DNA of 12,753 nt from an uncultured bacterium (GTDB taxonomy: Bacteria; Planctomycetota; UBA1135): positions 1 through 12,753 of the forward strand of contig CALFOT010000102.1 of NCBI GenBank assembly GCA_937919925.1, read 5' to 3'. How positions within the stretch are numbered: the stretch's first letter is position 1; every line of letters starts with the position of its first letter. The notes beneath the pieces are model-generated. The model searched no databases. It was not told the origin of the DNA and saw only the letters and a program-made list of their open reading frames with translations. Both the position numbers and the translations under genes were made by a program. Shown here in pieces: positions 208 through 12,753 of the stretch.

Positions 208-223
208 TGGCACGCGCCTTGCA
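208..223 (+). promoter_or_regulatory. sigma-54 (RpoN) dependent -24/-12 promoter, perfect consensus TGGCACG-N4-TTGCA
   Basis: TGGCAC at 208-213, spacer gcgcc, TTGCA at 219-223. The GG and GC dinucleotides are exactly 10 nt apart. The predicted TSS near 233-235 is about 20 nt upstream of the ATG at 254. An NtrC-family activator is encoded in the same gene array. Confidence 0.7.
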
Positions 224-826: not shown

Positions 827-1864
827 ATGACCCTTTTTCTTAATCTAATCACCCTGGCTTTACTCGGGCTTCCACAACAAGAAGGCACTCAAGGTGAGAC
901 TGTGCAATCACCGTCAAGCTCGCAACAAGCCGGTGCCAGCCTCGTACTGCCCGACTTCGATCCTGCCGTTTCCTTTAATCAACTTGAACAAGGAATGCGT
1001 CGCTTGGATCCCGTCACAAAAACACTGCGTGATGCCAACGAGACCATTCATCCTCTGGTCGAGGAGTTCAAGATTGACCCCTCTCTGGAAAACCAGGCGA
1101 AACTGGAAACGGCCTTAGCGAAGTTCACCGCCGATCTTTCACGCAAGATACGCAGTGCTCTTGCTGCCCATGAAAAGGTAACCTTCGCATTTCAAGATAT
1201 CGTGCACGGTGTCAAAGGAATGGGGGTATCCCTTGAACTGTACTCTGCTGATCTGAAGCAGCAGGCCGCCACCGAAGAAGAAGCGCTCGCCGAGAGCGTG
1301 AAGCAGCTAGAGGAGGTAGCCGAGGCTTGGGATGTAGCCGAGGATGCTGAAGAAAAGGAGTCCTTGATGGAACAGTTCAAGGAGCTCTATCGGCTGCAAC
1401 AACGGCAAGTCTATCGCGCACGATATTTAGGTGCATTGGCCAATCACTACAAGGATCTTGCCGGCGGCGTGGTGCAACTGGATGGTTCCCTACGCATGGT
1501 GCATGGTCGCGTTGAGGATGCTTATGATCGGCTCGAAGATGCAGGTGAGATGCTTGCATTTGCCGCAGGCTTCCGTCGCGATGCCACCGGAATCGTAGCC
1601 CACTACCAGTCGTTCTTCGGCCAAGGGAACGATTCGGTGCGCAATGTCCTGGAGCGGATTCAAAGTATCGAAGGACGTCTCGAGATCTTCGAAGGCGCGT
1701 CCAGTGTGCTGGACGAAGCTGGTCCATTGATGCCCATGTTGCATGACATGGATCAACTCACCCAAGGCTTGAAAAACAGTGCCGAAACCGCCGACCAAAA
1801 TGAAGTGGTATCAGCCGATAGCTATTGGGAATCAAAAATGCAAAAAACCCTGCAAGGGGAATAG
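827..1864 (+). CDS. secreted acidic alpha-helical/coiled-coil protein of unknown function (345 aa)
   Basis: GAGGA RBS at 815-819, 7 nt before the ATG. The N-terminal hydrophobic signal peptide is MTLFLNLITLALLGLPQQE. The body is Glu/Ala/Leu/Gln-rich with predicted long helices. No recognisable catalytic motif. Confidence 0.8.
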   Translation: MTLFLNLITLALLGLPQQEGTQGETVQSPSSSQQAGASLVLPDFDPAVSFNQLEQGMRRLDPVTKTLRDANETIHPLVEEFKIDPSLENQAKLETALAKFTADLSRKIRSALAAHEKVTFAFQDIVHGVKGMGVSLELYSADLKQQAATEEEALAESVKQLEEVAEAWDVAEDAEEKESLMEQFKELYRLQQRQVYRARYLGALANHYKDLAGGVVQLDGSLRMVHGRVEDAYDRLEDAGEMLAFAAGFRRDATGIVAHYQSFFGQGNDSVRNVLERIQSIEGRLEIFEGASSVLDEAGPLMPMLHDMDQLTQGLKNSAETADQNEVVSADSYWESKMQKTLQGE

Positions 1865-1900
1865 AGAAATAACCCTTTACTAAACAACCATCGAGGAATC

Positions 1901-2464
1901 ATGATGAACACAATCCTACTGTTTTTCCTGGCCGCAATGCCGCAACAGGAATTCGCCTCTGCACAAAGCGCATATGAGCAAGTGCAGCCCACCCCTTCCG
2001 AAACGGTTCAAGTCCTGGTTGAGCGTAACGAGTTCACTCTCGCTCGTGTGACTGAGTTGGAAAGGCGCATAGCTGCCGACGAGACAAAATTGATTGAACT
2101 GGATCGCTTAGAGGTTGAGCGCTATTTGGCACTCAAAGCTCACTTCACGGATAAGGAGCTTGAGAAACGCCTTCAGGCCGAAGCGCGTACTTTCGAACTT
2201 CGCCGCAAGGGAGTCAAGCAGTCCATCGAACTGACCAACATCAACTTAGAAGATGCTCGCAATCGACTTGCTAAGTTGGACGTGGATCTTCGTCTCGCAC
2301 GCATCGAGCAAGGTCTTGTTCAAAACACAGAGCCTGCACCTGGAACGCCAGTGGCGGATCGGCTTGAAGCCCGTTCACGCACCGTTCTTCTGGATCGCGC
2401 AATGGCCGTCGGCAAGTTTGATTTCGTGTCGATTCCGCACTCTTGGGTCACATTGGAATTCTAA
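1901..2464 (+). CDS. secreted coiled-coil protein of unknown function (187 aa)
   Basis: GAGGA at 1893-1897 just upstream of a tandem ATG ATG. The signal peptide is MMNTILLFFLAAMPQQEFASA. Charged heptad-like stretches follow (ELERRIAADETKLIELDRLEVERYL..., LAKLDVDLRLARIEQ). Confidence 0.8.
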   Translation: MMNTILLFFLAAMPQQEFASAQSAYEQVQPTPSETVQVLVERNEFTLARVTELERRIAADETKLIELDRLEVERYLALKAHFTDKELEKRLQAEARTFELRRKGVKQSIELTNINLEDARNRLAKLDVDLRLARIEQGLVQNTEPAPGTPVADRLEARSRTVLLDRAMAVGKFDFVSIPHSWVTLEF

Positions 2465-2476
2465 GGAGTGCGAATC

Positions 2477-3268
2477 ATGCGTTGTGCGGAACCCATTGCG
2501 TGGATTGTCTCAATAGGAGTTCATGCCTGGCTATTGATGCCAGTGCTTGCAGAAACAAGTGGGCAGTCAACATCGGCAGAAGATGTTGCAACTTCGATAG
2601 TAGCAGTGGCGGTTGTCGCCGAACGCCCCCCTTCAAAGGTCGAGGTTGAACCTGAACAGGAGCCGGAGTATTTGGAAGAGGAGATGGCATCACCGGTGGA
2701 GTTGCGCCCCGCTGACGAGCTCGCTGTGTTTGAGGAGGATGGCGATTCTTGGGAGGAGTCACTGGCAGAACCAGAAGGCAGCGGAGAATCGTCACCAGCA
2801 TCAGCAATGGTGTTTTCCGATGATGCCGTGCGAGCGCTGAACTTGGTGCTGGATCTTTCGGATCATGATCTATTCCTTTCTGCTGCTCAGGACTTAGAGA
2901 TACGTTTCCTCATCTATCCGGCTTCTAAGTCTCCCAAGTGGGTACTTGAGTTACATGGCCCTGGTCTTGAATCGGTGGCACAAATAACCCCTGATTCTTT
3001 GGGTCAGCTTTCCCGTCGCGCGCACGATTTGACTCCCGATCGGTTTTTCCGCACAATTCGCAATCGTGCAACACAATCGGCTGGATTTCCCTCAACCGGG
3101 GCTCGTTTGGTTGCTGCAGTACCCGCTGGAACCGACAAGATGTTCCTTGCTGCGGAAAGGAGTTACCTCCAACAAGCTGGGCCTGCAGCAGCTCAAATGA
3201 GAACTCTGCATGGGTGCCTTGTCCGCGACGGCAGCACTTGGCAGTTAGAGATAACGGGGGGGGTGTAG
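2477..3268 (+). CDS. membrane-anchored protein with TonB-like N-terminal SxxxH transmembrane anchor and acidic Glu/Pro-rich spacer (264 aa from ATG 2477; the longest ORF begins at GTG 2468)
   Basis: AGGAG at 2464-2468 is 8 nt before ATG 2477. The GTG at 2468 overlaps the RBS and is unlikely to be the start. The TM segment IAWIVSIGVHAWLLMPVL carries the S-x3-H spacing seen in the TonB anchor. It is followed by the acidic stretch VEVEPEQEPEYLEEEMASPVELRP. I cannot recognise a TonB C-terminal domain. Confidence 0.75.
   Translation: MRCAEPIAWIVSIGVHAWLLMPVLAETSGQSTSAEDVATSIVAVAVVAERPPSKVEVEPEQEPEYLEEEMASPVELRPADELAVFEEDGDSWEESLAEPEGSGESSPASAMVFSDDAVRALNLVLDLSDHDLFLSAAQDLEIRFLIYPASKSPKWVLELHGPGLESVAQITPDSLGQLSRRAHDLTPDRFFRTIRNRATQSAGFPSTGARLVAAVPAGTDKMFLAAERSYLQQAGPAAAQMRTLHGCLVRDGSTWQLEITGGV
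3256..3263 (+). repeat. G8 homopolymeric tract immediately before the stop codon of CDS 2477..3268
   Basis: A direct read gives ...acg ggg ggg gtg tag. The tract lies at the junction of two reading frames that are both open here (the 2477 frame and the 3214/3331 frame). Confidence 0.9.
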
Positions 3269-3330
3269 AATCTGAACCTCTTGGCCTCTTTCCAGCTACC
3301 CACCCCCAATTCCTGTTCTTCGGAGAACCC

Positions 3331-4845
3331 TTGGCTCATCTCTTAGTCGTTGACGATGCTTATCATAAAGTCCGCTCTGGTCTTGATGCGGTATTGGATG
3401 AACACCGGGTCTCTGGTGCCACCGACGGCGCCGCGGCTCTGCAGCTGATTGAATCCGAACCTTCCATCGACGTTGTGCTGCTTGATGTGCGCATGCCTCC
3501 TCTGGTCGGCAAGATTGAAGAAGAAGAAGGGTTGGCGGTATTCGAGAAAATAAAGGAGATTCGACCAGAGTTGCCGGTGATTTTCCTTTCGGCTTACGAC
3601 GATCTCCGCTTAGTGAATCGCGCTTTGACAGCAGGTGGTTTTTGGTATTTGAAGAAGCCACCAGACTTAGAGGAGACTCGAAGTTTAGTGCGCCGGGCAG
3701 TCGAGCTGAGCCTTGCACAGAGGGAATCTACCGAGAGGCGCGCTGCAGCGGAAGCTCGTCTCCAAGTGGTATCGCGTACGGGGATTCGCAGACCTAATAG
3801 TCGGCTGGTTGGTGATTCATTCGTTCTTCGTCAACTCAACTTAGAGTTGGCGATGTTCGCGGCAACGGATGTTCCTGTACTTTTGCTTGGTGAGACAGGT
3901 TGTGGCAAAGAGCTGTGTGCCCATGAACTTCACGATTTGTCTGCTCGTCGAAGTGGCCCTTTTATTGCTGTCAATTGTCACGAGCTTAATCATAGTGAAA
4001 CTGCTCAGTCGAGGTTGTTCGGCCATAGCAAAGGAGCCTTTACCGGTGCTGTTGAAGACACGCAAGGAGCCTTTGAATCGGCTCATGGTGGCACATTGTT
4101 CCTCGATGAAATCGGCGATTTAGATCTTGATATGCAAGGCCGGTTATTGCGCGTACTTCAAGAGCGTGAGGTCGTGCGCATCGGTGCTGGCGAACGCCCT
4201 CGCGCCGTAGATGTGCGCATGGTCTTTGCCACCAATCGGAATCCCGAGGTCCTTGTAAGTGAAGGTATCGTTCGAGAGGATTTCTACTATCGAATTGCAG
4301 TCGGGGTAGTGAGAGCACCGGCGCTTCGTGAGCATCTCGATGATTTGGAGTTGCTGGTGCCGGCTTTGTTGCAAGCTTCTCTTGTCAGGGATCGGATTCC
4401 TGAATGTACCGTAAGTACTGCTGTTTATCCTTTGCTTTGCAACCACAATTGGCCAGGCAACGTGCGTGAGTTAGAGAATGTTTTGAAAAGGGCTGCCGTG
4501 CGAGCAGCCTCTCAAGGTGTCATCTCACCAGAGCACATTGATTTGCCAAGAGATACCGTTGCCTCAGCCACTTCGGCAACAATCTCAGGCGATTTGTTCA
4601 CAGAGATCTTGGGAAATGGGGGGTACTCTGACGGCTTGAAGCGATTCCGAGACGAATACGGAGAAATCGCAATGCGTGAGGTCCTGACCAGAGCGGTACG
4701 TCTCTCGGGTAGCGTGGTGCGCGCCGGTGAACTGCTTGGCTTTGTTCACCCGGACAGCCGAGCGAAGGATTATGAGAACCTTCGAGCTTGGATGAAAACT
4801 CTTGGCTTGCGCAAAAGTGATATCGCAGAAGGAGGTCTCGCGTGA
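3331..4845 (+). CDS. NtrC-family sigma-54-dependent transcriptional activator / response regulator (receiver + AAA+ sigma-54 interaction domain + Fis-type HTH); likely TTG start at 3331, while the ORF-track frame opens at 3214
   Basis: Receiver motifs are present: LLVVDD, phospho-Asp context VVLLDVRMP, and the conserved Lys in WYLKKP. The AAA+ domain has Walker A GETGCGKE, the sigma-54 contact loop GAFTGA, Walker B LFLDEIGDL, and R-finger/sensor regions VRMVFATNRN and EDFYYRI. The C-terminal HTH is ...RAGELLG.... GGAGA at 3320-3324 lies 6 nt before TTG 3331, and the receiver fold begins at MAHLLVVDD. The stop overlaps the next start (GTGA at 4842-4845). Confidence 0.9.
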   Translation: MAHLLVVDDAYHKVRSGLDAVLDEHRVSGATDGAAALQLIESEPSIDVVLLDVRMPPLVGKIEEEEGLAVFEKIKEIRPELPVIFLSAYDDLRLVNRALTAGGFWYLKKPPDLEETRSLVRRAVELSLAQRESTERRAAAEARLQVVSRTGIRRPNSRLVGDSFVLRQLNLELAMFAATDVPVLLLGETGCGKELCAHELHDLSARRSGPFIAVNCHELNHSETAQSRLFGHSKGAFTGAVEDTQGAFESAHGGTLFLDEIGDLDLDMQGRLLRVLQEREVVRIGAGERPRAVDVRMVFATNRNPEVLVSEGIVREDFYYRIAVGVVRAPALREHLDDLELLVPALLQASLVRDRIPECTVSTAVYPLLCNHNWPGNVRELENVLKRAAVRAASQGVISPEHIDLPRDTVASATSATISGDLFTEILGNGGYSDGLKRFRDEYGEIAMREVLTRAVRLSGSVVRAGELLGFVHPDSRAKDYENLRAWMKTLGLRKSDIAEGGLA

Positions 4846-6467
4846 GTGAATTGATTTGCCCGGATTGTGAACAGCAGCTTGATGGCATCATAGATTTCTG
4901 TACGAACTGCGGCGCCAATCTTGAAGAAGTCGACGCCGGCAGCGACGTTTTCTTTGCGGACTCAGATTTTGAGACCACTGCTGAGGAGCCGCCTTCGCTG
5001 GAATCCTCCACTGTCATTTCGATGGAACCGATTGTTGCTCCATCGCCGCCGCCTGTTATCGCGCCACGAGTTGAAATTCCTTCTTCCAACGATGACCCCC
5101 CAAACCTGGTCATGGATACGGGGGTAAGCGCTCGCGTTGGTGAAAATGGTGTCCTCTGGTTCGGATTGGCGAACAATCGAACCTCCCGGATTAATGCTCG
5201 TCTTGCCGTCAATATGGATAAAGGGGCTCGCGAGATGTTTCACCATTTCAATGGGGAGCGCGAGCTGCGCGTTGGGCCATCCGGCGAAGGTACTGCTTCA
5301 GTTTCGTTCCGCGCTCAAGTAGCAGGTGAGTTTCCGCTTTCGGTCCGCCTCTTCGTCGAAGACTACCGTGCAAGCGGGAAGGTTTCATTCTACCAGGTTG
5401 CCGATCACTGTAAGGTTTTCTTCGGTATCTCTAGTCAACAAAGCGGTGGTTCCATCACCGTGCACAACGAAGTTTGTATCGATCGAAACTATGGCGGCGA
5501 TATCAGCATTCGCCCTGAAGCTCTGCGCAGCATTCAGGAGAAAATGGGAGTTAACGAAGGCGCAAACAGAGCTGCTCCCCAGGAGTTGCCGCTGGAGGCG
5601 CCAGAATCTGTGCAGGGTTGGATACAGCACTCTAGAAACGCCATTCGAGGTTCTCATCTCCGCTTGGATGTCATGCGGCTCGATAAGTTGTATCGGCGTT
5701 TCCATATCCTGGTTTGTAACGAACTCTGGTTTGGTCGTAATGATGTCACGCAACTTCCCGGAGGTCGTAGAGGATTCAACACCCTTGCTTTGCGTTGGCT
5801 TCCCTGTCGGTCAAAAGAGCAAGACCCTAAGAGTTTTTCCTTTAATCAGTCCATCAGCCGCCATCATGCCGGCATGTTGCATGCCGATGAAGCTGGCACA
5901 GCTATTAACTGTTGCTCCAGCTCACTTCAGGTAGATACCCATCAACTTGGCAAAGGAGATTCGCAGCAGTTTCATGCTGGATCCGCCTATCGACTCAAGC
6001 TCGGACATCCGGCCCTTGAGTTTGATATCACTCCTTTGACGACTTCGGGAGAGGATCCTTCGCAATGGTTGCGGGATTGGAACCAATTTACAGGTATGAG
6101 TGGAGCGATTGTTCATCCAACGCGTCACGATGCGATTCGAATCGACCGTGTCAATAACTTGGAGCAAGTCAGTTACGTCATGCTCCTGCAGTCTGCATCC
6201 ATTGGCGGTGGGCGCCGAGATGCTTGTTTTGTCAAGGGACTGCCCCCCGCAGTCTTGAGACTCGCGCGTTGTGGATCCAACCTATTCGTCTTGACTGGCC
6301 CAGATTTTGTAAATCAAGGTACTGCTGCTGCCGACGAAAGGTATTGGCGACCAATATGCGCAGGCGATCGGTACGACTCGGGCGAGTGGAGCTACCGGTT
6401 TTCGACATCTTCGGTTTCCGATACCAAAAGAGAAGATGATTTGGTGAGTGCCTTGGAGGACGAATGA
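4842..6467 (+). CDS. N-terminal zinc-ribbon (DZR-type, CxxC-N11-CxxC) protein with a central FHA-like domain (541 aa), GTG start
   Basis: GGAGG at 4831-4835 is 6 nt before GTG 4842. The N-terminus is MSELICPDCEQQLDGIIDFCTNCGANL, followed by a Pro-rich linker. The FHA signature elements are WFGRN...SISRHHAGM...EAGTAINC...LGKGDSQ...YRLKLG. The loop between the first and second FHA elements is longer than usual, so the call is moderate. Confidence 0.6.
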   Translation: MSELICPDCEQQLDGIIDFCTNCGANLEEVDAGSDVFFADSDFETTAEEPPSLESSTVISMEPIVAPSPPPVIAPRVEIPSSNDDPPNLVMDTGVSARVGENGVLWFGLANNRTSRINARLAVNMDKGAREMFHHFNGERELRVGPSGEGTASVSFRAQVAGEFPLSVRLFVEDYRASGKVSFYQVADHCKVFFGISSQQSGGSITVHNEVCIDRNYGGDISIRPEALRSIQEKMGVNEGANRAAPQELPLEAPESVQGWIQHSRNAIRGSHLRLDVMRLDKLYRRFHILVCNELWFGRNDVTQLPGGRRGFNTLALRWLPCRSKEQDPKSFSFNQSISRHHAGMLHADEAGTAINCCSSSLQVDTHQLGKGDSQQFHAGSAYRLKLGHPALEFDITPLTTSGEDPSQWLRDWNQFTGMSGAIVHPTRHDAIRIDRVNNLEQVSYVMLLQSASIGGGRRDACFVKGLPPAVLRLARCGSNLFVLTGPDFVNQGTAAADERYWRPICAGDRYDSGEWSYRFSTSSVSDTKREDDLVSALEDE

Positions 6468-7489
6468 GCCGTTTCGAAGAACGTATTCGCGCTGCCGAGG
6501 AAAGGGCGAAGGGTAGAGTCCAAGCGGCAGCAAACTGTCATTCCGCCTCGCCTGCGGAGCGTGGCACATGGGCTGAGTATCGGGAGCGCATGGACAGCCT
6601 ACGCAAGGAAATCGACAATCGGTTTCAATCGACCGGAAGTTATCAGAGCAAGGAATGCGGCCCTTTAGATCGCATTTTCCTCGAGCGTGCACTTTCCGCC
6701 CTGAAGCATGGCCTCGTTGAATCCTGTTTCTACAACTTAAGGATTCTCGCCCAAAAGGTGGCCCTCGATAGAGGGAGCCAAGACTTGAGCGCCCTGACCA
6801 CTGCTGGTGAGCGAGTACCGACGGTACGCAAAGAGCTTGGCTTGTTCCTTCAGGGCCGGGTTCCATGTGGAATCCTGGTGGCTGATCTTCTCCCAGATTT
6901 GGCGAGTGTTTTTTTGAAAACACTCCCGTTGCTTGAAGGTGCCGTAGTGGGAGGCTTGGCGATGGCGAAGGAGATTCCAGCTTTGGTAGATGCCGTCCTT
7001 TCGGGCATCGCAAGAGAAGCTGATAGTCTGCGCTCTCAGCGATTATCCTTATTCGCTCTTGTGCGTCGAGCATTGGAGATTGAAGGGCCAAGACTTCAAG
7101 AAGCGGACATGGATGTAAGCGTTGAAAACGAAGTGGAAGACGATCGCATTCATGCTGATGAACCACGTCTTCTCGATACTATCGTTGAGTTGTTAAGAAA
7201 CGCCGCAGTTCATCGAGAAGGAAGTGGTCGCGGGAAGGTGGTCATTAACTTGAGGCCGCGCGAGAACTATATTCACCTTGTGGTCTCAAGTCGACCTGCT
7301 CTTCCACCCCTCATCCCTCTTAATCGACTTTTCGAGACCGGAGTCTCGCGGAGGGAAGGTGGGGGCGATGGGCTTGCAACCGTCCAGCGCACCTTGACTT
7401 CCCATGGTGGCAGGGCGGAGCTTCAGTTTTCTTGTGGCAGTGGCACCTTCGACGTTTGCCTAGCCTTGCCTACCCGGCTTCCGGTTTAG
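6464..7489 (+). CDS. atypical histidine-kinase-like ATPase (GHKL/HATPase_c at C-terminus; no clear H-box; degenerate G1 box) (341 aa)
   Basis: ATGA overlap with the upstream stop (6464-6467). The N-box is LLDTIVELLRNAAVH, the F-box is LFETGVSRR, and the G2 box is GGGDGLATVQRTLTSHGG, with the typical HK ending GSGTFDVCLALP. The expected G1 position reads VVSSRPALPP instead of DxGxG. The N-terminal 230 aa are helical; H26 is the only weak H-box candidate. Confidence 0.65.
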   Translation: MSRFEERIRAAEERAKGRVQAAANCHSASPAERGTWAEYRERMDSLRKEIDNRFQSTGSYQSKECGPLDRIFLERALSALKHGLVESCFYNLRILAQKVALDRGSQDLSALTTAGERVPTVRKELGLFLQGRVPCGILVADLLPDLASVFLKTLPLLEGAVVGGLAMAKEIPALVDAVLSGIAREADSLRSQRLSLFALVRRALEIEGPRLQEADMDVSVENEVEDDRIHADEPRLLDTIVELLRNAAVHREGSGRGKVVINLRPRENYIHLVVSSRPALPPLIPLNRLFETGVSRREGGGDGLATVQRTLTSHGGRAELQFSCGSGTFDVCLALPTRLPV

Positions 7490-7498
7490 CCAAGCCGG
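7474..7498 (+). terminator. GC-rich 7-bp hairpin (CCGGCTT-N11-AAGCCGG) spanning the stop codon of CDS 6464..7489; possible weak or partial terminator or mRNA-stability element without a U-tract
   Basis: Arms 7474-7480 and 7492-7498 are exact reverse complements. It is followed by cccaggaatcgggg rather than a T-run. Confidence 0.2.
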
Positions 7499-7538
7499 CC
7501 CAGGAATCGGGGATAAATGAATCACATTTGGTGAGTTC

Positions 7539-7585
7539 CCCTGCATCTCAGGGAGTCTGGATTCACAAAAAACACCGATGCAGGG
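7539..7585 (+). promoter_or_regulatory. 9-bp perfect inverted repeat CCCTGCATC-N29-GATGCAGGG directly upstream of the second sigma-54-like promoter; candidate regulator binding site
   Basis: Arms 7539-7547 and 7577-7585 are exact reverse complements separated by 29 nt. The centre lies about 40 bp upstream of the -24 element at 7598. Confidence 0.3.
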
Positions 7586-7597
7586 CGTAGATGGCAG

Positions 7598-7613
7598 TGG
7601 CATGATGGTTGCA
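7598..7613 (+). promoter_or_regulatory. sigma-54-type -24/-12 promoter with one mismatch: TGGCATG-N4-TTGCA
   Basis: TGGCAT at 7598-7603, spacer gatgg, TTGCA at 7609-7613. The GG/GC spacing is correct. It sits in the only sizeable intergenic gap (119 bp) of the array, immediately upstream of the lipoprotein gene. Confidence 0.5.
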
Positions 7614-7635
7614 CTCTTTCATTGTTGTCCCCCTG

Positions 7636-8748
7636 ATGACTACCATGCGAATCATCATCATTACTACATTGAGTCTCGTTGGCTGTGTGAGCCCCCCTCT
7701 TGGCTCTACTTTCGAGGATGCTCAGTCTCTCGCTAATCGCGGGGAGTTCGGAGCTGCAGTAGCTGTAGCAGAACCGCTGCTGCTCAGAACAACTTCAGTT
7801 TCTACACTTGAGGAGGTCTGTGGGTGGGCGCTAAAGGCCGGGCGGATGGAGCAGGCATATGATTTCTCCAATCGGCTCATCGGCTTCGAATCCCAATCAT
7901 GGGTTGGCCATCGCACTCGTGGGCTGGCTCTTGTTTCTTTAAAGCGGCTCAGTGCTGCGATTCCAGATCTTGAGTTTGTCCATCGTAATGGCCCGCCAGA
8001 TTCTGAAGTTCAACGCGCCCTTGGTCTTGCGATGGAATTTGTTGGAAGAGATCCAGGCAAGGCAAACTCCCTGCTAGTTTTATCTGGCTTCGATGATGAT
8101 GAGGTGACCGCCGCTCTCAGCCGCCTCGAAGTTCTGCTTCATCCCGCGCCACTGCCTTCCGTCACAGTTACCGACGAACCTGCCGCATGGACTCAAGTCG
8201 CCGCACTTGATTTGGCCACGACATGTTTTGTCTTAGATGAGCAGCTGAGGCTTTCGGGCTTCCTTCTCAAAAACCAGGAAGCCGCTGCTCTTACCGGCGA
8301 CGAATATGCATCTGGCTTACGCGCTGCCGACCGTCGTCGAGATGCTGCTGCCCTTGTCGACCTTCCAGACGAAGATGGCACAGCCGCCGTTCTCACTCAT
8401 TTCGTCGAAGTCGGTCTACTGAGTGTCGACAACAACAAAATCAACCCCGACGAGATTCTCCAGCGTGGTCAGTTTGCACAACTTGTAACGGACCTTCTGC
8501 GATTACTCGAGGAGGATAAAGGATTTGCGGTTGGAGGTGACGGTGAATCTCCTTTCTCGGACATGAGCGTTCGGCATCCCCGCTTTGCGGTTGCGAGCGC
8601 AGCTTGTGCGCTTGGTGTTCTGCACGCAGACGCATCGCGACGTTTTCGGCCTTCGGACCCGCTTTCTGGCGCGGAACTTTCCGACGCTCTCGACCTACTT
8701 CGCGAAGTTCTTCTTCGTTCTCCGCTTTACCAAGAGATGATTCGATGA
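7636..8748 (+). CDS. lipoprotein with TPR-like helical repeats and two C-terminal SLH (S-layer homology)-like repeats (371 aa from ATG 7636; the track ORF opens at TTG 7609, which overlaps the promoter)
   Basis: The lipoprotein signal is MTTMRIIIITTLSLVGC (lipobox LVGC). The SLH-like motifs are LPDEDGTAAVLTHFVEVGLLSVDNNKINPDEILQRGQFAQLV and FSDMSVRHPRFAVASAACALGVLHADASRRFRPSDPLSGAELSDAL. Both follow the F-x-D...A...G(I/V/L)...F-x-P...(I/L)-(T/S)-R/G-A-E pattern. Confidence 0.7.
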   Translation: MTTMRIIIITTLSLVGCVSPPLGSTFEDAQSLANRGEFGAAVAVAEPLLLRTTSVSTLEEVCGWALKAGRMEQAYDFSNRLIGFESQSWVGHRTRGLALVSLKRLSAAIPDLEFVHRNGPPDSEVQRALGLAMEFVGRDPGKANSLLVLSGFDDDEVTAALSRLEVLLHPAPLPSVTVTDEPAAWTQVAALDLATTCFVLDEQLRLSGFLLKNQEAAALTGDEYASGLRAADRRRDAAALVDLPDEDGTAAVLTHFVEVGLLSVDNNKINPDEILQRGQFAQLVTDLLRLLEEDKGFAVGGDGESPFSDMSVRHPRFAVASAACALGVLHADASRRFRPSDPLSGAELSDALDLLREVLLRSPLYQEMIR

Positions 8749-9803
8749 TAGCCCTCCTTTCGATTGCCTGTTTTGCTTTGGCTCAGCCACTTGTGGCTTT
8801 ACCGGCACAAGAACCTAGTCATGATGTCTCGGATCAATCTGCAAGGTCGACTTCACTCGAGGTCGCAGGAGAAGCTGTTGGGCTTACTCGTGAAGCTGCA
8901 ATATCCGCTGCGAAACAAGATGCCATGTCGCGCGCGATTCAGGAACTTTATCGCGAAGAAGGTCTTGCCGCACCCCTGCAGGCTGTTGCCGATCGCTTAG
9001 CAGCGCTGGATCGTTCACTCGGTGGTTTTCTTGCCGCTGAGACTCTTGATTCTGAATGGAAGGAAGAGACTAGTCTCGCGAAGGTTCGCTTGAAAGTCGA
9101 AGCCGACATCGTCGCTTTTCGTCGCTGTGCTTCACGTGCTCTGCGTGTGCAAGTAATTTGCACAGGCCCCCTTTCAGACCAGATTGCATCCAGTTTCAAG
9201 GAGAGGCTTGCCGCCGAAGGTTTTGAGGTGGTATTGGGTGGATCGCGGGAAGGCGCCGATGCGATTGTCATCGCCAAGCCGGTGCTCGATAAATTGCCAG
9301 GCGGCGAGGCAGGTTTCTCTTCTTGGCGCGGCGCCCTCACGATTGAAGTTCATTCGCTCTCGATGCGTGACGACGCCACAGTTGTGCTTGCTGATCGTCG
9401 ATTCGAACCAAAGGGAGCCATGGTCGGCAGCAATGCCCGTGAAGTGGCACGGAAGACCATCCTTCCGCTTTGTTCAGAGGCGGCAGATCTTGCCGCACAG
9501 CGTATTTTGAACGCAGCTTCGGCAAGTGCCCGTTGGACAATCTCCGTCGAAGGCGCAACCGAACGCTACCTCGTCGAAGATTTGCTCGACGCCATTACCC
9601 AACGAGGTGTTTCTGCCGGCGTGGTGGGGGTTAGTTCTCTCAGCTGGGATCCTCCGAATGCAACCTTCCGGTTGGTCGTCGATCGTCGTGGGGCGAATCG
9701 CCTTGGTGGTATCATGGGCACTCTGGATTTGTCTGAAGGTAGGCGGGTGCGGGTGTTACGCGAAGCAAACTCAACCATGATCGTTAGAATTGAATCCTCC
9801 TGA
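8745..9803 (+). CDS. secreted protein with N-terminal LPP20-like domain (353 aa from ATG 8745; the track ORF is artificially extended upstream to 8604)
   Basis: ATGA overlap with the stop of the lipoprotein gene (8745-8748). The signal peptide is MIALLSIACFALAQPLVALPAQEP. EVAGEAVGLTREAAISAAKQDAMSRAIQELY resembles the LPP20/FlgP-type lipoprotein fold signature. The C-terminal half (GADAIVIAKPV...LTIEVHSLSMRDDATVV) weakly resembles the CsgG/FlgO-type motif. Confidence 0.55.
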   Translation: MIALLSIACFALAQPLVALPAQEPSHDVSDQSARSTSLEVAGEAVGLTREAAISAAKQDAMSRAIQELYREEGLAAPLQAVADRLAALDRSLGGFLAAETLDSEWKEETSLAKVRLKVEADIVAFRRCASRALRVQVICTGPLSDQIASSFKERLAAEGFEVVLGGSREGADAIVIAKPVLDKLPGGEAGFSSWRGALTIEVHSLSMRDDATVVLADRRFEPKGAMVGSNAREVARKTILPLCSEAADLAAQRILNAASASARWTISVEGATERYLVEDLLDAITQRGVSAGVVGVSSLSWDPPNATFRLVVDRRGANRLGGIMGTLDLSEGRRVRVLREANSTMIVRIESS

Positions 9804-9810
9804 TTTTGTC

Positions 9811-10899
9811 ATGTATTTCCTTCTCACTCTTCCTCTCGTTCTGTTTCAGAACGGCCCCTCTCAGCTCGATGAGATTCTTCCCAGTCGAGCCGAAAGCCTT
9901 GCTATTGAGCTCGCCGCTGACTTGAATGAAAGCGGTATTCTCGGAGAGCATGGCATCCAAGCGTTCGCCTTCCCAGGTGCAATCGGTGATGTACAAGGCG
10001 CTTTTCATGACCGCCTTTTAAATCACATGTTGCGCGACTTTGGCTTGGAGTTGATTGCCGAGCGCGAAGAAAGGGTTCAAATACTGCAAAACTATTTCCG
10101 TAAAGATGGTTTTGAACAAGGCATCTATGATGGTGGCAGCCTAAAGAGTCTTGGTGGACAATTTTTGGACAACGAGGCGATTCTCGGCGCCAGAATTTAT
10201 TCGGTGGACGGAGCGGATGGGTTAGAGATATATGCTCAAGCTGAACTTTGGGATGCACGCCGCGCCGTCATGGTGTGGAATAAAACGATATCGCTCTTGG
10301 TGAAGGAACCGGTTTCTCCGCCTGTTGTCGTAGAGAAAGAGGAATCCTTATTCGTGCCAGTCCTAATCATTCTTGCTGGAATCATCGCCGCGATCGCCAT
10401 ATTCAGTCTAATGAATCGCAGGGAACAGATTGCGAAGGCTCAGCGACGTGGAGGGGCATCTATCGAGAGGCAATCGCAGAAAAAGCGCGACCGTGATTTG
10501 CGAGGTGAGGCTGCTCGACGAGCGCATGCAGGAGCAGATCGCTTGACCGCAGCAGCAAGCCAAGTCGATGCCGCAGCTCGTTCTATCTTCGAAAATTCAG
10601 GTGAAGACTTACGGTCGCTCGCAAGGAATTTCGAGAAGGCTGCCGCAGGTACATTTCGCCGTCCCGTAGAGGAGCGAGGTGATTCAGAGATTGCTGCTGC
10701 ACGCGCCCTAGCTGACCATGACGAACGTACACTCGGCCTAGTAGAGGAAATGGGTCGTACTGTTGATACCCTAGTTGCCGGGGCTTCTTCTGATTCCGCT
10801 GAGGCGGTAGCTAAGTTGGCTGCCAAGCTAGAAGACCTCATCCAGAGTGCTAATCACCGTCTCGGAGAACGCACTGACCTGATTCGTTCCAGTAGTTAA
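9811..10899 (+). CDS. bitopic membrane protein: signal peptide, periplasmic CsgG/FlgO/TolB_N-like motif domain, single TM helix, cytoplasmic charged coiled-coil tail (363 aa from ATG 9811; alternative TTG 9790)
   Basis: The N-terminus is MYFLLTLPLVLFQNG. The periplasmic region FAFPGAIGD...GLELIAEREERVQILQNYFRKDGFEQGIYDGGSLKSLGGQFLDNEAILGARIYSVDGADGLEIYAQAELWDARRAVMVW follows the motif ER..l..il.E...q.sG.yd....k.lG...gadaii.G.i......g..i.a.l.d..tg.vvw. The TM helix is LFVPVLIILAGIIAAIAIFSL, followed by an Arg/Ala/Glu-rich tail. Confidence 0.55.
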   Translation: MYFLLTLPLVLFQNGPSQLDEILPSRAESLAIELAADLNESGILGEHGIQAFAFPGAIGDVQGAFHDRLLNHMLRDFGLELIAEREERVQILQNYFRKDGFEQGIYDGGSLKSLGGQFLDNEAILGARIYSVDGADGLEIYAQAELWDARRAVMVWNKTISLLVKEPVSPPVVVEKEESLFVPVLIILAGIIAAIAIFSLMNRREQIAKAQRRGGASIERQSQKKRDRDLRGEAARRAHAGADRLTAAASQVDAAARSIFENSGEDLRSLARNFEKAAAGTFRRPVEERGDSEIAAARALADHDERTLGLVEEMGRTVDTLVAGASSDSAEAVAKLAAKLEDLIQSANHRLGERTDLIRSSS

Positions 10900-10907
10900 T
10901 AATTGTC

Positions 10908-12533
10908 ATGACCCCCTTCTCATTTCTGAAACGATGCCCTGAGTGTAAGAACAAGCTAGAGCGGGGAGCTAATTTTTGCGGGTGCGGTGCGCCGGTGCGT
11001 GACTTTCGTCGCACTTGTCACCACTGTCATCGCATCGTTGATGCCCAAGCGGAAAGGTGTGCTCATTGCAACGCCCTTCTTGCAGAGGTCGAACCTCGCT
11101 ATGTTTTGATTCGCTGGGCTCGCCGTTCGCGTGAATTTGCCCGACGCATTGATGTTGTGGCCTTCACGGAAGGCGAAGAGGTAATCACAGATTCGGGCGC
11201 GGCACTTCAGGGTGCACTTGATGGTGGTGTTACGGTCGAAGCCGGGACGAAAGCGTTACTTCTTGTTAACGGTAGCTTGGAGAAGGTGCTTGAGCCCGGT
11301 TGGACTTCCACAACCAGCGATGCTCTCTCGGTTTATTCAGGTGAAGAATATATTCACACTTTGACCGTGATTGCTGTTGACTCAAGCGACACCGATTTAG
11401 CATGGCGATTCCCGCTTGCACTTGACTCGAACTCGGATGCCGGTGATGAGAAATCTTCCGCGATGGCGCTCGTCACTAAAGATGGGTTTCGTGTTGCGCT
11501 AAGGTTAGGGATTACCATTAGCCTTGCCGATGCAGCGGCCTTGGCGAGTAATCTGCTCAAGGAGCAAGTTTCCATTACTGTCAGTAGTCTCGCCGCTTGG
11601 CTTGCGCCTACGGTAGACGCCGCTGTTCGAGAACTCGTTGGACAGACCGATAGCGCAGAATTAAGAACGCCAGATAGCAATTGGCGTAGCCAATTTGAAG
11701 GTTTGTTGCGCGATCGACTCCAGCGTGACCTTGAGGTTGTTGGCCTCCGAATGGAAAGGCTCAGGGGTTTTGGGCTGGAGAGTCCTAGGCTCAAAGAGTT
11801 GGAAGACGATCGAGAAACCACTGCAGTCATTCGTGGCAAGGCGGGAGAGGCTCGAGCAAGACTTGAGCACATCGAGAATCTTCAAGATGCACTTGTCAAG
11901 AAACGTCGTCTCGATGACAAGGCACGTCTGGAAATCGAGAAGTCGGGCATTCTCACCGACGCAGAGATTGCCGAACTTAATCGCCATGCAGATGATGAGG
12001 AACTCGGTTGGAAACACGCGCGCGAAATGTTGGCCGCGAAACACGCTGCAGGGGTTGAAGAAATATCGAAACGTGCGTCCTTGAAGCTATTCGTCGAAAG
12101 GAAGGAAGAGGAAATTCGTCTTGATGACAAGCGCAAGCGGCTCGATATGGACCGAGATGAGCGGGAACGCGATCACGAGGCTGATGTCGCTCTGAAAATC
12201 ATTGCTGCCAAACAGCAACATAAAATGGAACAGATTCAGGTCTTCCAGGATTGGGATGATCCCGAGAAAATCCTTACCGTTCTTGCTGGGATTAGTCCGG
12301 ATGCTGCAGAAGCACTTCGTGCAAAATATCAGCGTGCCAACGACGATGACCGCGTTGAGTTGCTCAAGGAAATGCAAGGAGAAATGTCCAAGGTTCAACA
12401 GTCTGCGATGGGTGGAATGGCCAGTGTTGCAGCGGCAAAGGCAACCACACGGTTAATTCCATGTCCACATTGTCGCATCAATGTTTCCGTTGATACAACG
12501 AAGTGCCCCTCTTGCGATAAGCTTGTGAAGTAG
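10908..12533 (+). CDS. soluble zinc-ribbon / SPFH (band-7, flotillin-like) / coiled-coil protein with two N-terminal and one C-terminal zinc ribbons (541 aa)
   Basis: The N-terminus contains CPECKNKLERGANFCGCGAPV and CHHCHRIVDAQAERCAHCNALL. The SPFH motifs are VEAGTKALLLVNGSLEKVLEPGW and MALVTKDGFRVALRLGITISLADAAALASNLL, plus a downstream GLRMERLRGFGL region. A long E/R/K/D-rich coiled coil follows. The C-terminus is IPCPHCRINVSVDTTKCPSCDKLV. No TM segment. Confidence 0.7.
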   Translation: MTPFSFLKRCPECKNKLERGANFCGCGAPVRDFRRTCHHCHRIVDAQAERCAHCNALLAEVEPRYVLIRWARRSREFARRIDVVAFTEGEEVITDSGAALQGALDGGVTVEAGTKALLLVNGSLEKVLEPGWTSTTSDALSVYSGEEYIHTLTVIAVDSSDTDLAWRFPLALDSNSDAGDEKSSAMALVTKDGFRVALRLGITISLADAAALASNLLKEQVSITVSSLAAWLAPTVDAAVRELVGQTDSAELRTPDSNWRSQFEGLLRDRLQRDLEVVGLRMERLRGFGLESPRLKELEDDRETTAVIRGKAGEARARLEHIENLQDALVKKRRLDDKARLEIEKSGILTDAEIAELNRHADDEELGWKHAREMLAAKHAAGVEEISKRASLKLFVERKEEEIRLDDKRKRLDMDRDERERDHEADVALKIIAAKQQHKMEQIQVFQDWDDPEKILTVLAGISPDAAEALRAKYQRANDDDRVELLKEMQGEMSKVQQSAMGGMASVAAAKATTRLIPCPHCRINVSVDTTKCPSCDKLVK

Positions 12534-12561
12534 CGGACTTCAGCCTCGGACGATTCCTGAA

Positions 12562-12753
12562 ATGCGCTGCACCACCTGCGGATTTGAAAATTCTGGCACA
12601 GCCAAATTCTGTGCCGAATGTGGTGCCAGGATTGCGCCGCCTTCCTCATCGGCCCAAGTTCCTGACGCAGAGCTTTCACTCCAGCCCACCCTCGGCTCTG
12701 GTCCTCCATCGGACTCCCCAGCAGCGTTAGCTGGCTCCGAATCCCTCATCGCC
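12562..12753 (+). CDS. 5'-partial CDS (continues past window end): N-terminal zinc-ribbon protein with Pro/Ser-rich linker
   Basis: ATG at 12562, open to the end of the window (64 codons), so it is absent from the ORF track. MRCTTCGFENSGTAKFCAECGARI is the same CxxCG-N9/11-FCxxCG zinc-ribbon pattern as at the N-termini of CDS 4842 and CDS 10908. Confidence 0.6.
   Translation, partial: MRCTTCGFENSGTAKFCAECGARIAPPSSSAQVPDAELSLQPTLGSGPPSDSPAALAGSESLIA

Follow-up and report, generated by a model that had tools for sequence, protein, structure and literature searches.

Zinc ribbons of an ordinary family on an FHA protein, a soluble SPFH protein and a Hanks kinase in a planctomycete locus with sigma-54 motifs

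The 12,753-nt stretch of DNA from an uncultured aquatic planctomycete analyzed here in full (the window; contig CALFOT010000102.1 of assembly GCA_937919925.1, lineage UBA1135) carries 12 genes, g1 to g12, three of which, g6, g11 and g12, encode proteins that bear short four-cysteine (Cys4) zinc-ribbon (ZnR) motifs on otherwise different bodies. We find that these motifs are real, non-random and conserved, that the ribbons are unremarkable examples of the ubiquitous Zn_Ribbon_1/DZR family, and that, judged by sequence comparison, their carriers are, respectively, a protein with tandem FHA domains, a soluble SPFH (flotillin/HflK-like) protein and a Hanks-type Ser/Thr kinase. The explanation we consider probable is that these are generic adaptor ribbons on a kinase/FHA/SPFH signaling complex belonging to a sigma-54-controlled envelope-signaling locus, and the three carriers are best read as parts of one Ser/Thr phosphorylation pathway. 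The ribbon pattern is thus real but largely ordinary, much as a domain specialist would expect: ZnR-kinase, ZnR/DZR-FHA and ribbon-bearing SPFH proteins are each already known as architectures. Few unexplained additions to bacterial signaling and membrane-associated proteins are as common as short Cys4 ribbons, and a locus that places them on a kinase, a likely phosphothreonine reader and a membrane scaffold under one set of sigma-54 promoters offers a compact test case for co-assembly.

Zinc-ribbon motifs and their family

The five Cys4 segments that a first-pass annotation of the window, made from the letters alone, had quoted from these proteins are all present in the genes concerned, each of which lies on the + strand. 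In g6 (4842-6467, 541 aa) the ribbon spans positions 4857..4922 and residues 6-27 (CPDC-x10-CTNC-GANL, with the Cys span at 6-23). In g11 (10908-12533, likewise 541 aa) an N-terminal double ribbon occupies 10935..11069, or residues 10-54, as CPEC-x10-CGC (10-26) followed by CHHC-x10-CAHC (37-54), and a further ribbon lies near the C terminus at 12462..12515 (residues 519-536, CPHC-x10-CPSC). The g12 ribbon is found at 12568-12633 (residues 3-24, Cys span 3-20) and is followed by a Pro/Ser-rich linker, in a gene of which the window holds the 5′ end (12562-12753, 64 codons) before cutting it at its own border. The segments g6 6-23, g11 37-54, g11 519-536 and g12 3-20 all read CxxC-x10-CxxC, and the CxxC...FCxxCG pattern that the annotation had described as shared is represented in all three proteins, with the exception that the first ribbon of g11 (10-26) ends in CxC instead. 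This is a conserved variant, CxxC-x10-CxC: its knuckle, C-[GS]-C at residues 24-26 (10977-10985; FC-G-CG in the window), is invariant over 39-85% identity. The three carriers had also been called consecutive, which does not hold, since g7-g10 (6464-10899) separate g6 from g11 and g12.

A six-frame regular-expression scan of the window finds stop-free CxxC-N(5-20)-CxxC in g6, g11 and g12 only, and 4 strict motifs are observed where residue shuffles of the 12 proteins average 0.004, with three motif-bearing proteins appearing in none of the shuffles. In g11 and in the g12 fragment, moreover, no Cys lies outside a ribbon (12 and 4 residues, respectively). Conservation in orthologues, on which the annotation had made its idea of a shared module depend, is found down to 25% identity for g6 and 39% for g11. 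The four Cys of g6 are kept in orthologues at 87, 66, 44, 32 and 25% identity (P0002-4, P0010 and P0011), with one orthologue at 35% identity, from locus L008, carrying the variant CPHESC...CCVHC, and 12 of 12 Cys of g11 are invariant in homologues at 85, 46 and 39% identity. We predict that the ribbons bind Zn.

As to their family, the g12 ribbon matches Pfam Zn_Ribbon_1 (PF13240) with 27.6 bits (cut-off 25) and residues 10-55 of g11 match DZR (PF12773) with 30.7 bits (cut-off 27.3), with weak Pfam Zn_ribbon_15 and UPF0547 matches for the C-terminal ribbon of g11. The g6 ribbon scores 19 bits with DUF7575, 16 bits with DZR and 15.7 bits with Zn_Ribbon_1, and its orthologue P0010 reaches the Zn_Ribbon_1 cut-off at 25.2 bits. 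All of the ribbons fit the generic Zn_Ribbon_1/DZR consensus C-x2-C-x10-FC-x2-CG, and comparison with the hidden Markov models therefore places them in one broad family, where the annotation had also allowed for unrelated ones.

Within that family the three carriers show no closer kinship. Ribbons of g6, of g12 and the first of g11 share 4-5 identities over 18 non-Cys positions, the same ribbons share 3-6 of 18 with those of unrelated remote proteins, and between true orthologues the figure rises to as many as 12 of 18; the positions that are common to all three are those of the family consensus. Net charges range from -7 in g6 through +1 in g12 to +4 and +3 in g11. Because the identities lie at background level and the charges diverge, we see no locus-specific signature, no recent exchange and no common surface, and a recent ribbon duplication or exchange among the three genes was rejected on the same non-Cys identities. 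The first ~30 positions of the g6 profile also match multi-ribbon proteins that are otherwise unrelated, one of them with as many as 19 ribbons. The ribbons themselves are poorly modeled by AlphaFold2 (AF2).

The three ribbon carriers

The body of g6 had been labeled FHA-like in the first-pass annotation, and the label is right. A profile (A1) built from five g6 orthologues and searched against 1.84 billion representatives returned 259 proteins of two kinds, those aligned over the first ~30 positions only and those aligned over positions ~275-530. Many of the 20 relatives of the second kind that were scanned match Pfam FHA or Yop-YscD_cpl exactly at the aligned positions (for FHA, E 3.2e-13 in P0040 and 6.1e-16 in P0024), and when the g6 profile is aligned by hhalign to the FHA segment of P0040, certified by Pfam, the probability is 94.6% and the E value 6.6e-8. 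It is these remote homologues, FHA-certified where g6 aligns to them, together with the profile-profile alignment, that support the assignment; the FHA beta-sandwich fold was confirmed for the g6 body as well. Direct searches are silent: neither g6 nor any of its sub-regions matches Pfam FHA (PF00498) even at E<=10, PDB sequence searches with g6 and g11 return no match, and aligning the profile by hhalign to a single canonical but unrelated FHA sequence likewise gives none.

The first of the two domains, FHA1 (5694..6041, + strand, residues ~285-400), keeps G298-R299 and S339-R-H-H, carries an LPCRS insertion, and has its G, R and S residues invariant over 9 sequences, so that we take g6 to be a tandem-FHA protein in which FHA1 is a predicted phosphothreonine reader with intact pocket residues. 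The second, FHA2-like domain (6114..6431, + strand, residues ~425-530) is degenerate and lacks both Gly-Arg and Ser-x-x-His; it aligns to the FHA matches of P0024 (462-528), P0025 (477-542) and P0018 (498-561). Between the ribbon and this divergent pair lies a beta-rich domain (5103..5486, + strand, residues ~88-215), which forms a conserved block in the orthologue alignment and shows beta strands of low confidence in the AF2 model; it is poorly modeled and has no Pfam match. ZnR-FHA relatives extend down to 18-25% identity, and among the 20 FHA-FHA relatives the N terminus is a ZnR or DZR in 7, a Ser/Thr kinase domain (Pkinase) in 8 and a TIR domain in one.

The second carrier combines the double ribbon, a soluble SPFH domain, a long coiled coil and the C-terminal ribbon. 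g11 matches Pfam Band_7 (PF01145) with 38.8 bits (cut-off 23.6), and its AF2 model comprises an alpha/beta domain at residues 68-291 followed by very long helices. A Foldseek search with this model returns 41 PDB matches at E<=1e-3, HflK/C (7vhq) at E 5.7e-7 among them, with HflK/C, prohibitin, stomatin, erlin, flotillin and QmcA in the top ranks and a few major-vault-protein chains lower down. g11 is a soluble SPFH protein that may assemble into a cage, as its relatives do. No hydrophobic segment was detected in it, and it hence has no N-terminal anchor, whether transmembrane (TM) or hairpin, of the kind found in HflK/C, stomatin and flotillin; the double ribbon stands in that place instead. 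The gene directly upstream, g10 (9811-10899, + strand), encodes a bitopic membrane protein (369-aa open reading frame, ORF) with a single strong hydrophobic segment, a TM helix at residues ~183-211, and a helical cytoplasmic C-terminal half. A g10 homologue is found directly upstream of every g11 homologue examined, and g10 is probably the membrane anchor of g11. Hydrophobic segments are absent from g6 and g12 as well, in keeping with the cytoplasmic location that the annotation had assigned to all three carriers.

The third carrier had been set down as an unknown Pro/Ser-rich protein, and here the earlier description, correct for the FHA-like and SPFH/coiled-coil bodies, has to be replaced. 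In longer contigs (L001) the g12 gene continues beyond the Pro/Ser linker into a Hanks Ser/Thr kinase domain with GQGGMGAVY...HRDVKPAN...DFG, and this continuation matches NCBIfam kinase models at E 5.7e-54. In the related locus L009, the g12 orthologue and a paralogue both consist of an N-terminal ribbon, a kinase, two more ribbons and TPR-like helices. Against the NCBIfam model NF045510, the '4-Cys prefix', g12 scores 14.7 bits (E 0.027), below the 24-bit cut-off, and many of its relatives combine PF13240 or PF12773 with a kinase domain. A search for a full-length g12-type kinase returned fragments of at most 403 aa only.

Two observations on the assemblies concern this gene. Every contig with the locus (the 3′ ends of L001-L006) stops inside the g12 kinase gene, and the close protein-database matches are all fragments. 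The two kinase paralogues of L009 are roughly 90% identical, and because of such near-identical copies repeats probably break the assemblies. In the same contig a 1380-aa ORF is called at 4051-8193, which joins a ZnR-kinase-DZR-TPR protein in frame with the g8 and g9 homologues; an internal sigma-54 motif and a lipoprotein start point to separate expression of the g8-like part, in addition to the fusion or in place of it.

Sigma-54 motifs, gene order and relatives

All 12 genes of the ORF list lie on the + strand and are co-directional, with identical gene calls on more than 20 near-identical aquatic-metagenome contigs; metagenome-assembled genomes of Planctomycetota are the source of the relatives. 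Two sigma-54-type -24/-12 motifs, both on the coding strand and both in one of the window's only two sizeable intergenic gaps, divide the genes into operon 1 (g1-g7) and operon 2 (g8-g12). The first, TGGCACGCGCCTTGC at 208..222 (+), lies 32 nt upstream of the g1 start, matches TGGCAC-N5-TTGC perfectly and is the sole site in the window with no mismatch. The second, TGGCATGATGGTTGC at 7598..7612 (+), lies 32 nt upstream of the g8 start with one mismatch, and L009-L011 and L015 conserve it as TGGCATGATGtTTGC, placed 31 nt before the start of the g8-like gene (6028-6042 in L009); in these loci the proteins are ~46% identical and the DNA flanking the motif has otherwise diverged. Sites with at most two mismatches are only mildly more numerous across the window than expected by chance, and the argument for promoters rests for this reason on position and conservation; scans of the window for sigma-70 promoters and terminators stayed at chance level.

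The likely activator is encoded in the first operon. g5 (3214-4845, + strand) is a sigma-54-dependent response regulator composed of a receiver and an AAA+ sigma-54 activator domain (Pfam Response_reg 60 bits, Sigma54_activat 191.6 bits, with NtrC-like matches in NCBIfam), the start of g6 overlaps its stop by 4 nt, and that of g7 overlaps the g6 stop by another 4 nt; g6 is translationally coupled to both neighbors. g7 (6464-7489, + strand, 341 aa) is a soluble histidine-kinase-like ATPase (Pfam HATPase_c 31.8 bits, cut-off 26.4). A two-component step between g5 and g7 is what we propose. The only candidate His in g7 lies near residue 81 in a conserved LKHG(L/V)VESCFYNLR segment. These features support two putative sigma-54 operons with their activator in the first, and make a single regulon, as the first-pass annotation had assumed, a reasonable reading.

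The remaining genes of operon 1 are g1 (254-805), a TPR lipoprotein, g2 (827-1864) and g3 (1901-2464), both helical exported proteins, and g4 (2468-3268), a protein with an N-terminal TM segment; all are on the + strand. The layout of g4, with this segment followed by an acidic/Pro-rich spacer and a C-terminal domain, is TonB-like, and the relative at 66% identity (the P0003 contig) has genes for MotA/ExbB and ExbD immediately ahead of g1; the first operon may include a Ton/Tol-like energizer. In L002, g4 and g5 are called as one 789-aa gene (1569-3938), which reflects a sequence variant or an assembly error fusing two overlapping ORFs. Operon 2 opens with g8 (7645-8748, +), a lipoprotein with an LVGC lipobox, a hydrophobic N terminus, TPRs and a weakly SLH-like C terminus (Pfam TPR_9 and SLH matches, both sub-threshold), followed by g9 (8745-9803, +), a secreted protein with a signal-like N-terminal segment, conserved together with g8 in L009 and without family match in the Pfam and NCBIfam scans. 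PADLOC returned generic kinase matches only and no match for the other proteins of the window, on which outcome a known anti-phage system was rejected.

The annotation had asked of orthologous loci that they keep the ribbon proteins together, and they do so in part. The relative at 66% identity retains the full g1-g12 order; in more distant Planctomycetota the two halves occur apart. The three-gene stretch from the response regulator through the g6 orthologue to the HATPase gene is found in L007 (44%) and L008 (35%), with unrelated genes after it. Two shorter contigs cover one side each: that of L016 (25%) shows the response regulator next to the g6 orthologue and then stops, and in L017 (32%) the HATPase gene follows the g6 orthologue. 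A 341-aa g7 homologue thus follows every g6 orthologue that has a downstream flank on its contig (L001-6, L007, L008, L017 and the P0003 contig). Conversely, L009-L011 and L015 carry g8-g12 homologues and lack the first half, and L012-L014 retain only the g10-like and SPFH genes; genome and metagenome scans for further loci gave one locus each. From this separate occurrence we conclude that the locus is a composite of module A (g2-g7), with the tightly overlapping g5-g6-g7 as its core, and module B (g8-g12), with a core formed by g10-g11 and the ribbon-bearing kinases. The comparison further indicates that each ribbon fusion was independently acquired and is older than the joining of the two halves.

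In L018, from another planctomycete, a ZnR-FHA-FHA protein is encoded between three ZnR-kinase-DZR-TPR genes, so that a ribbon-bearing FHA reader and kinases with ribbons are found side by side once more. One L018 kinase of the ZnR-kinase-DZR-TPR type terminates in an FGE-sulfatase domain. Diversity-generating-retroelement genes (bAvd and reverse transcriptase) and kinase-FGE-sulfatase target genes with a C-type-lectin fold flank several of the homologous loci (L009 506-3938; L012 4790-6752 on the - strand; the P0003 contig; L018 1819-6702).

Readings of the ribbons and known systems

In light of these data, we propose that g12 or its paralogue would phosphorylate a target, that FHA1 of g6 would bind the resulting phosphothreonine and thereby gate g7 and g5, and that g5 would in turn activate the sigma-54 promoters before g1 and g8 and hence both operons, with g11 forming an SPFH assembly that the bitopic g10 would tether to the membrane. 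The ribbons could then serve as small Zn-stabilized protein-protein or oligomerization knobs that concentrate kinase, reader and scaffold under the membrane. For the step from kinase to g6, support comes from the fusion of g6-type FHA pairs to kinase domains, a Rosetta-stone argument, and from the L018 neighborhood; the later steps of the relay, as well as the partners of the ribbons, are put forward conditionally.

Several points weigh against this adaptor reading. The ribbon of g6 itself scores under every Pfam cut-off, and the tally of ribbon proteins covers the 12 genes of the window, not a genome-wide background. The AF2 model of g11 has a mean confidence (predicted local distance difference test, pLDDT) of only 62.1, and that of g6, built from 5 sequences, one of 47.8, usable for the 270-400 region only. 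g7 has neither a HisKA match in Pfam and NCBIfam nor an obvious H-box at the usual distance. The role as an adaptor knob is deduced from the promiscuity of such ribbons, and the recurrence in L018 could equally reflect a specific, ZnR-mediated pairing.

Were the ribbons instead independent structural caps, or contacts to membrane or nucleic acid, inherited family by family in a ribbon-rich lineage and devoid of a common or interaction function, one would expect each fusion to be independently old and present elsewhere and to show no locus-specific similarity, as is the case; the basic N terminus of g11, at the position of the membrane anchor in other SPFH proteins, would fit as well. We nonetheless hold this to be rather unlikely: every Cys is strictly conserved over 39-46% identity, the odd CxC knuckle included, and kinase and FHA partners are decorated with ribbons repeatedly in separate loci, which suggests a role in the pathway beyond folding.

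The first-pass annotation had favored a dedicated address tag, by which all three ribbons would bind one docking site (the g10 coiled coil, the SPFH cage, or each other) and so assemble a signalosome. This is possible on the evidence of co-occurrence: the module sits on 3 of the 12 proteins of one putative sigma-54 regulon, ZnR-FHA-FHA stands beside ZnR-kinase-DZR genes again in L018, each kinase carries three ribbons, and Cys conservation is strict; a complementary fit between the acidic ribbon of g6 (-7) and the basic N terminus of g11 (+4) is conceivable, and ydjGHI of Bacillus subtilis provides a precedent, with ZnR proteins grouped around an SPFH protein that is soluble (PMC11237479, PMC8581546). 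A locus-specific docking partner is not borne out by the comparisons, however, with likeness at background level and without a signature beyond the family consensus, charges too different for one common surface, fusions older than the locus and halves that are separable, the g6 ribbon being retained in loci without adjacent g8-g12. In g11, furthermore, the ribbons are split between the N and C termini, which lie far apart in the cages formed by related proteins. For YdjI, two-hybrid contacts have been reported to YdjH and PspA but not to YdjG, the ZnR protein (PMC8581546). We accordingly regard an address tag as unlikely.

In a further variant, hetero- or homotypic contacts between ribbons would act as co-assembly tags that bring the Hanks kinase and its FHA reader to an SPFH cage which is itself soluble and anchored by ribbons, with output through the g5-g6-g7 cassette into sigma-54 transcription. 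This is distinctly doubtful on present evidence; if true, it would give the very common bacterial zinc-ribbon prefix its first concrete function and define a flotillin-type kinase signalosome. Cys4 Zn sites serve as redox switches in other proteins, such as Hsp33 and RsrA, and oxidative or envelope stress might likewise oxidize the CxxC pairs, free Zn and alter kinase, FHA or SPFH activity or assembly in a locus that looks envelope-related (lipoproteins, SPFH, sigma-54 regulator), which we consider very improbable given sequences indistinguishable from thousands of structural ribbons, no thioredoxin- or peroxiredoxin-type genes in Pfam and NCBIfam scans of the window, and known redox-switch Zn sites that belong to other folds.

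The conserved cassette of three genes, a more solid result than the ribbon pattern, looks like a junction of Ser/Thr-kinase and two-component signaling in Planctomycetota. As far as our searches went, neither the g5-g6-g7 cassette nor its joining to the SPFH/kinase module has been described in the literature. The combination of ribbon proteins around an SPFH protein, which the annotation did not recognize from elsewhere, does have a precedent in the pspA-ydjGHI operon of B. subtilis, where two ZnR-bearing proteins are involved: YdjI joins a band-7 domain to a C-terminal ZnR, and YdjG has two ZnR, an NTF2-like domain and a TM segment (PMC11237479). YdjI is soluble and depends on membrane partners (PMC8581546). 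Like it, g11 has no TM segment, carries a C-terminal ribbon and is preceded by a bitopic protein, g10. It differs from YdjI in its additional N-terminal double ribbon and in a Pfam scan that lists Band_7 and not the YdjI-type Band_7_1; on comparison via the Pfam models, which give Band_7 only, and with no pspA linkage, g11 was not assigned to the YdjI type. Pfam, NCBIfam and a further scan found no PspA/ESCRT-III-like protein in the window, g2, g3 and g10 included, and g11 is instead accompanied by a Hanks kinase, an FHA protein and a sigma-54 two-component cassette.

The other known architectures meet single carriers. Proteins with ZnR or DZR and FHA, in which both DZR and FHA are Pfam-significant (P0018, P0020, P0024, P0025 and P0040), share with g6 an N-terminal Cys4 motif, a Pro-rich low-complexity linker and FHA; g6 differs from them in its single ribbon, extra beta domain, two FHA domains, the second degenerate, and setting between a sigma-54 response regulator and a histidine-kinase-like gene. 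Anabaena FraH has an N-terminal double zinc ribbon, a Pro-rich linker and a C-terminal FHA domain. ZnR-prefixed Hanks kinases and PP2C phosphatases (Zn_Ribbon_1/DZR with Pkinase; NF045510, NF011149) resemble g12 in the Cys4 ribbon ahead of the kinase domain, and the N-terminal ribbons of the phosphatase model PRK14559 align with those of g11 and the kinase; kinases of the g12 type add two post-kinase ribbons and then TPR. With the SPFH cage proteins (HflK/C, QmcA, stomatin, prohibitin, erlin, flotillin) g11 shares the SPFH fold and the long helix, and it departs from them in lacking a TM or hairpin anchor and in carrying zinc ribbons at both ends.

At the level of whole loci, SPFH proteins with a coiled coil and ZnR, together with genes for Ser/Thr kinases, Ser/Thr phosphatases and FHA proteins, have been described in archaeal ESCRT-type loci (Makarova et al. 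2024, PMC10936438). Those loci are archaeal and linked to Vps4/ESCRT-III, which is absent here; compared at domain level, the two share the SPFH-coiled coil-ZnR architecture and the placing of a kinase and an FHA protein around a membrane-remodeling scaffold.

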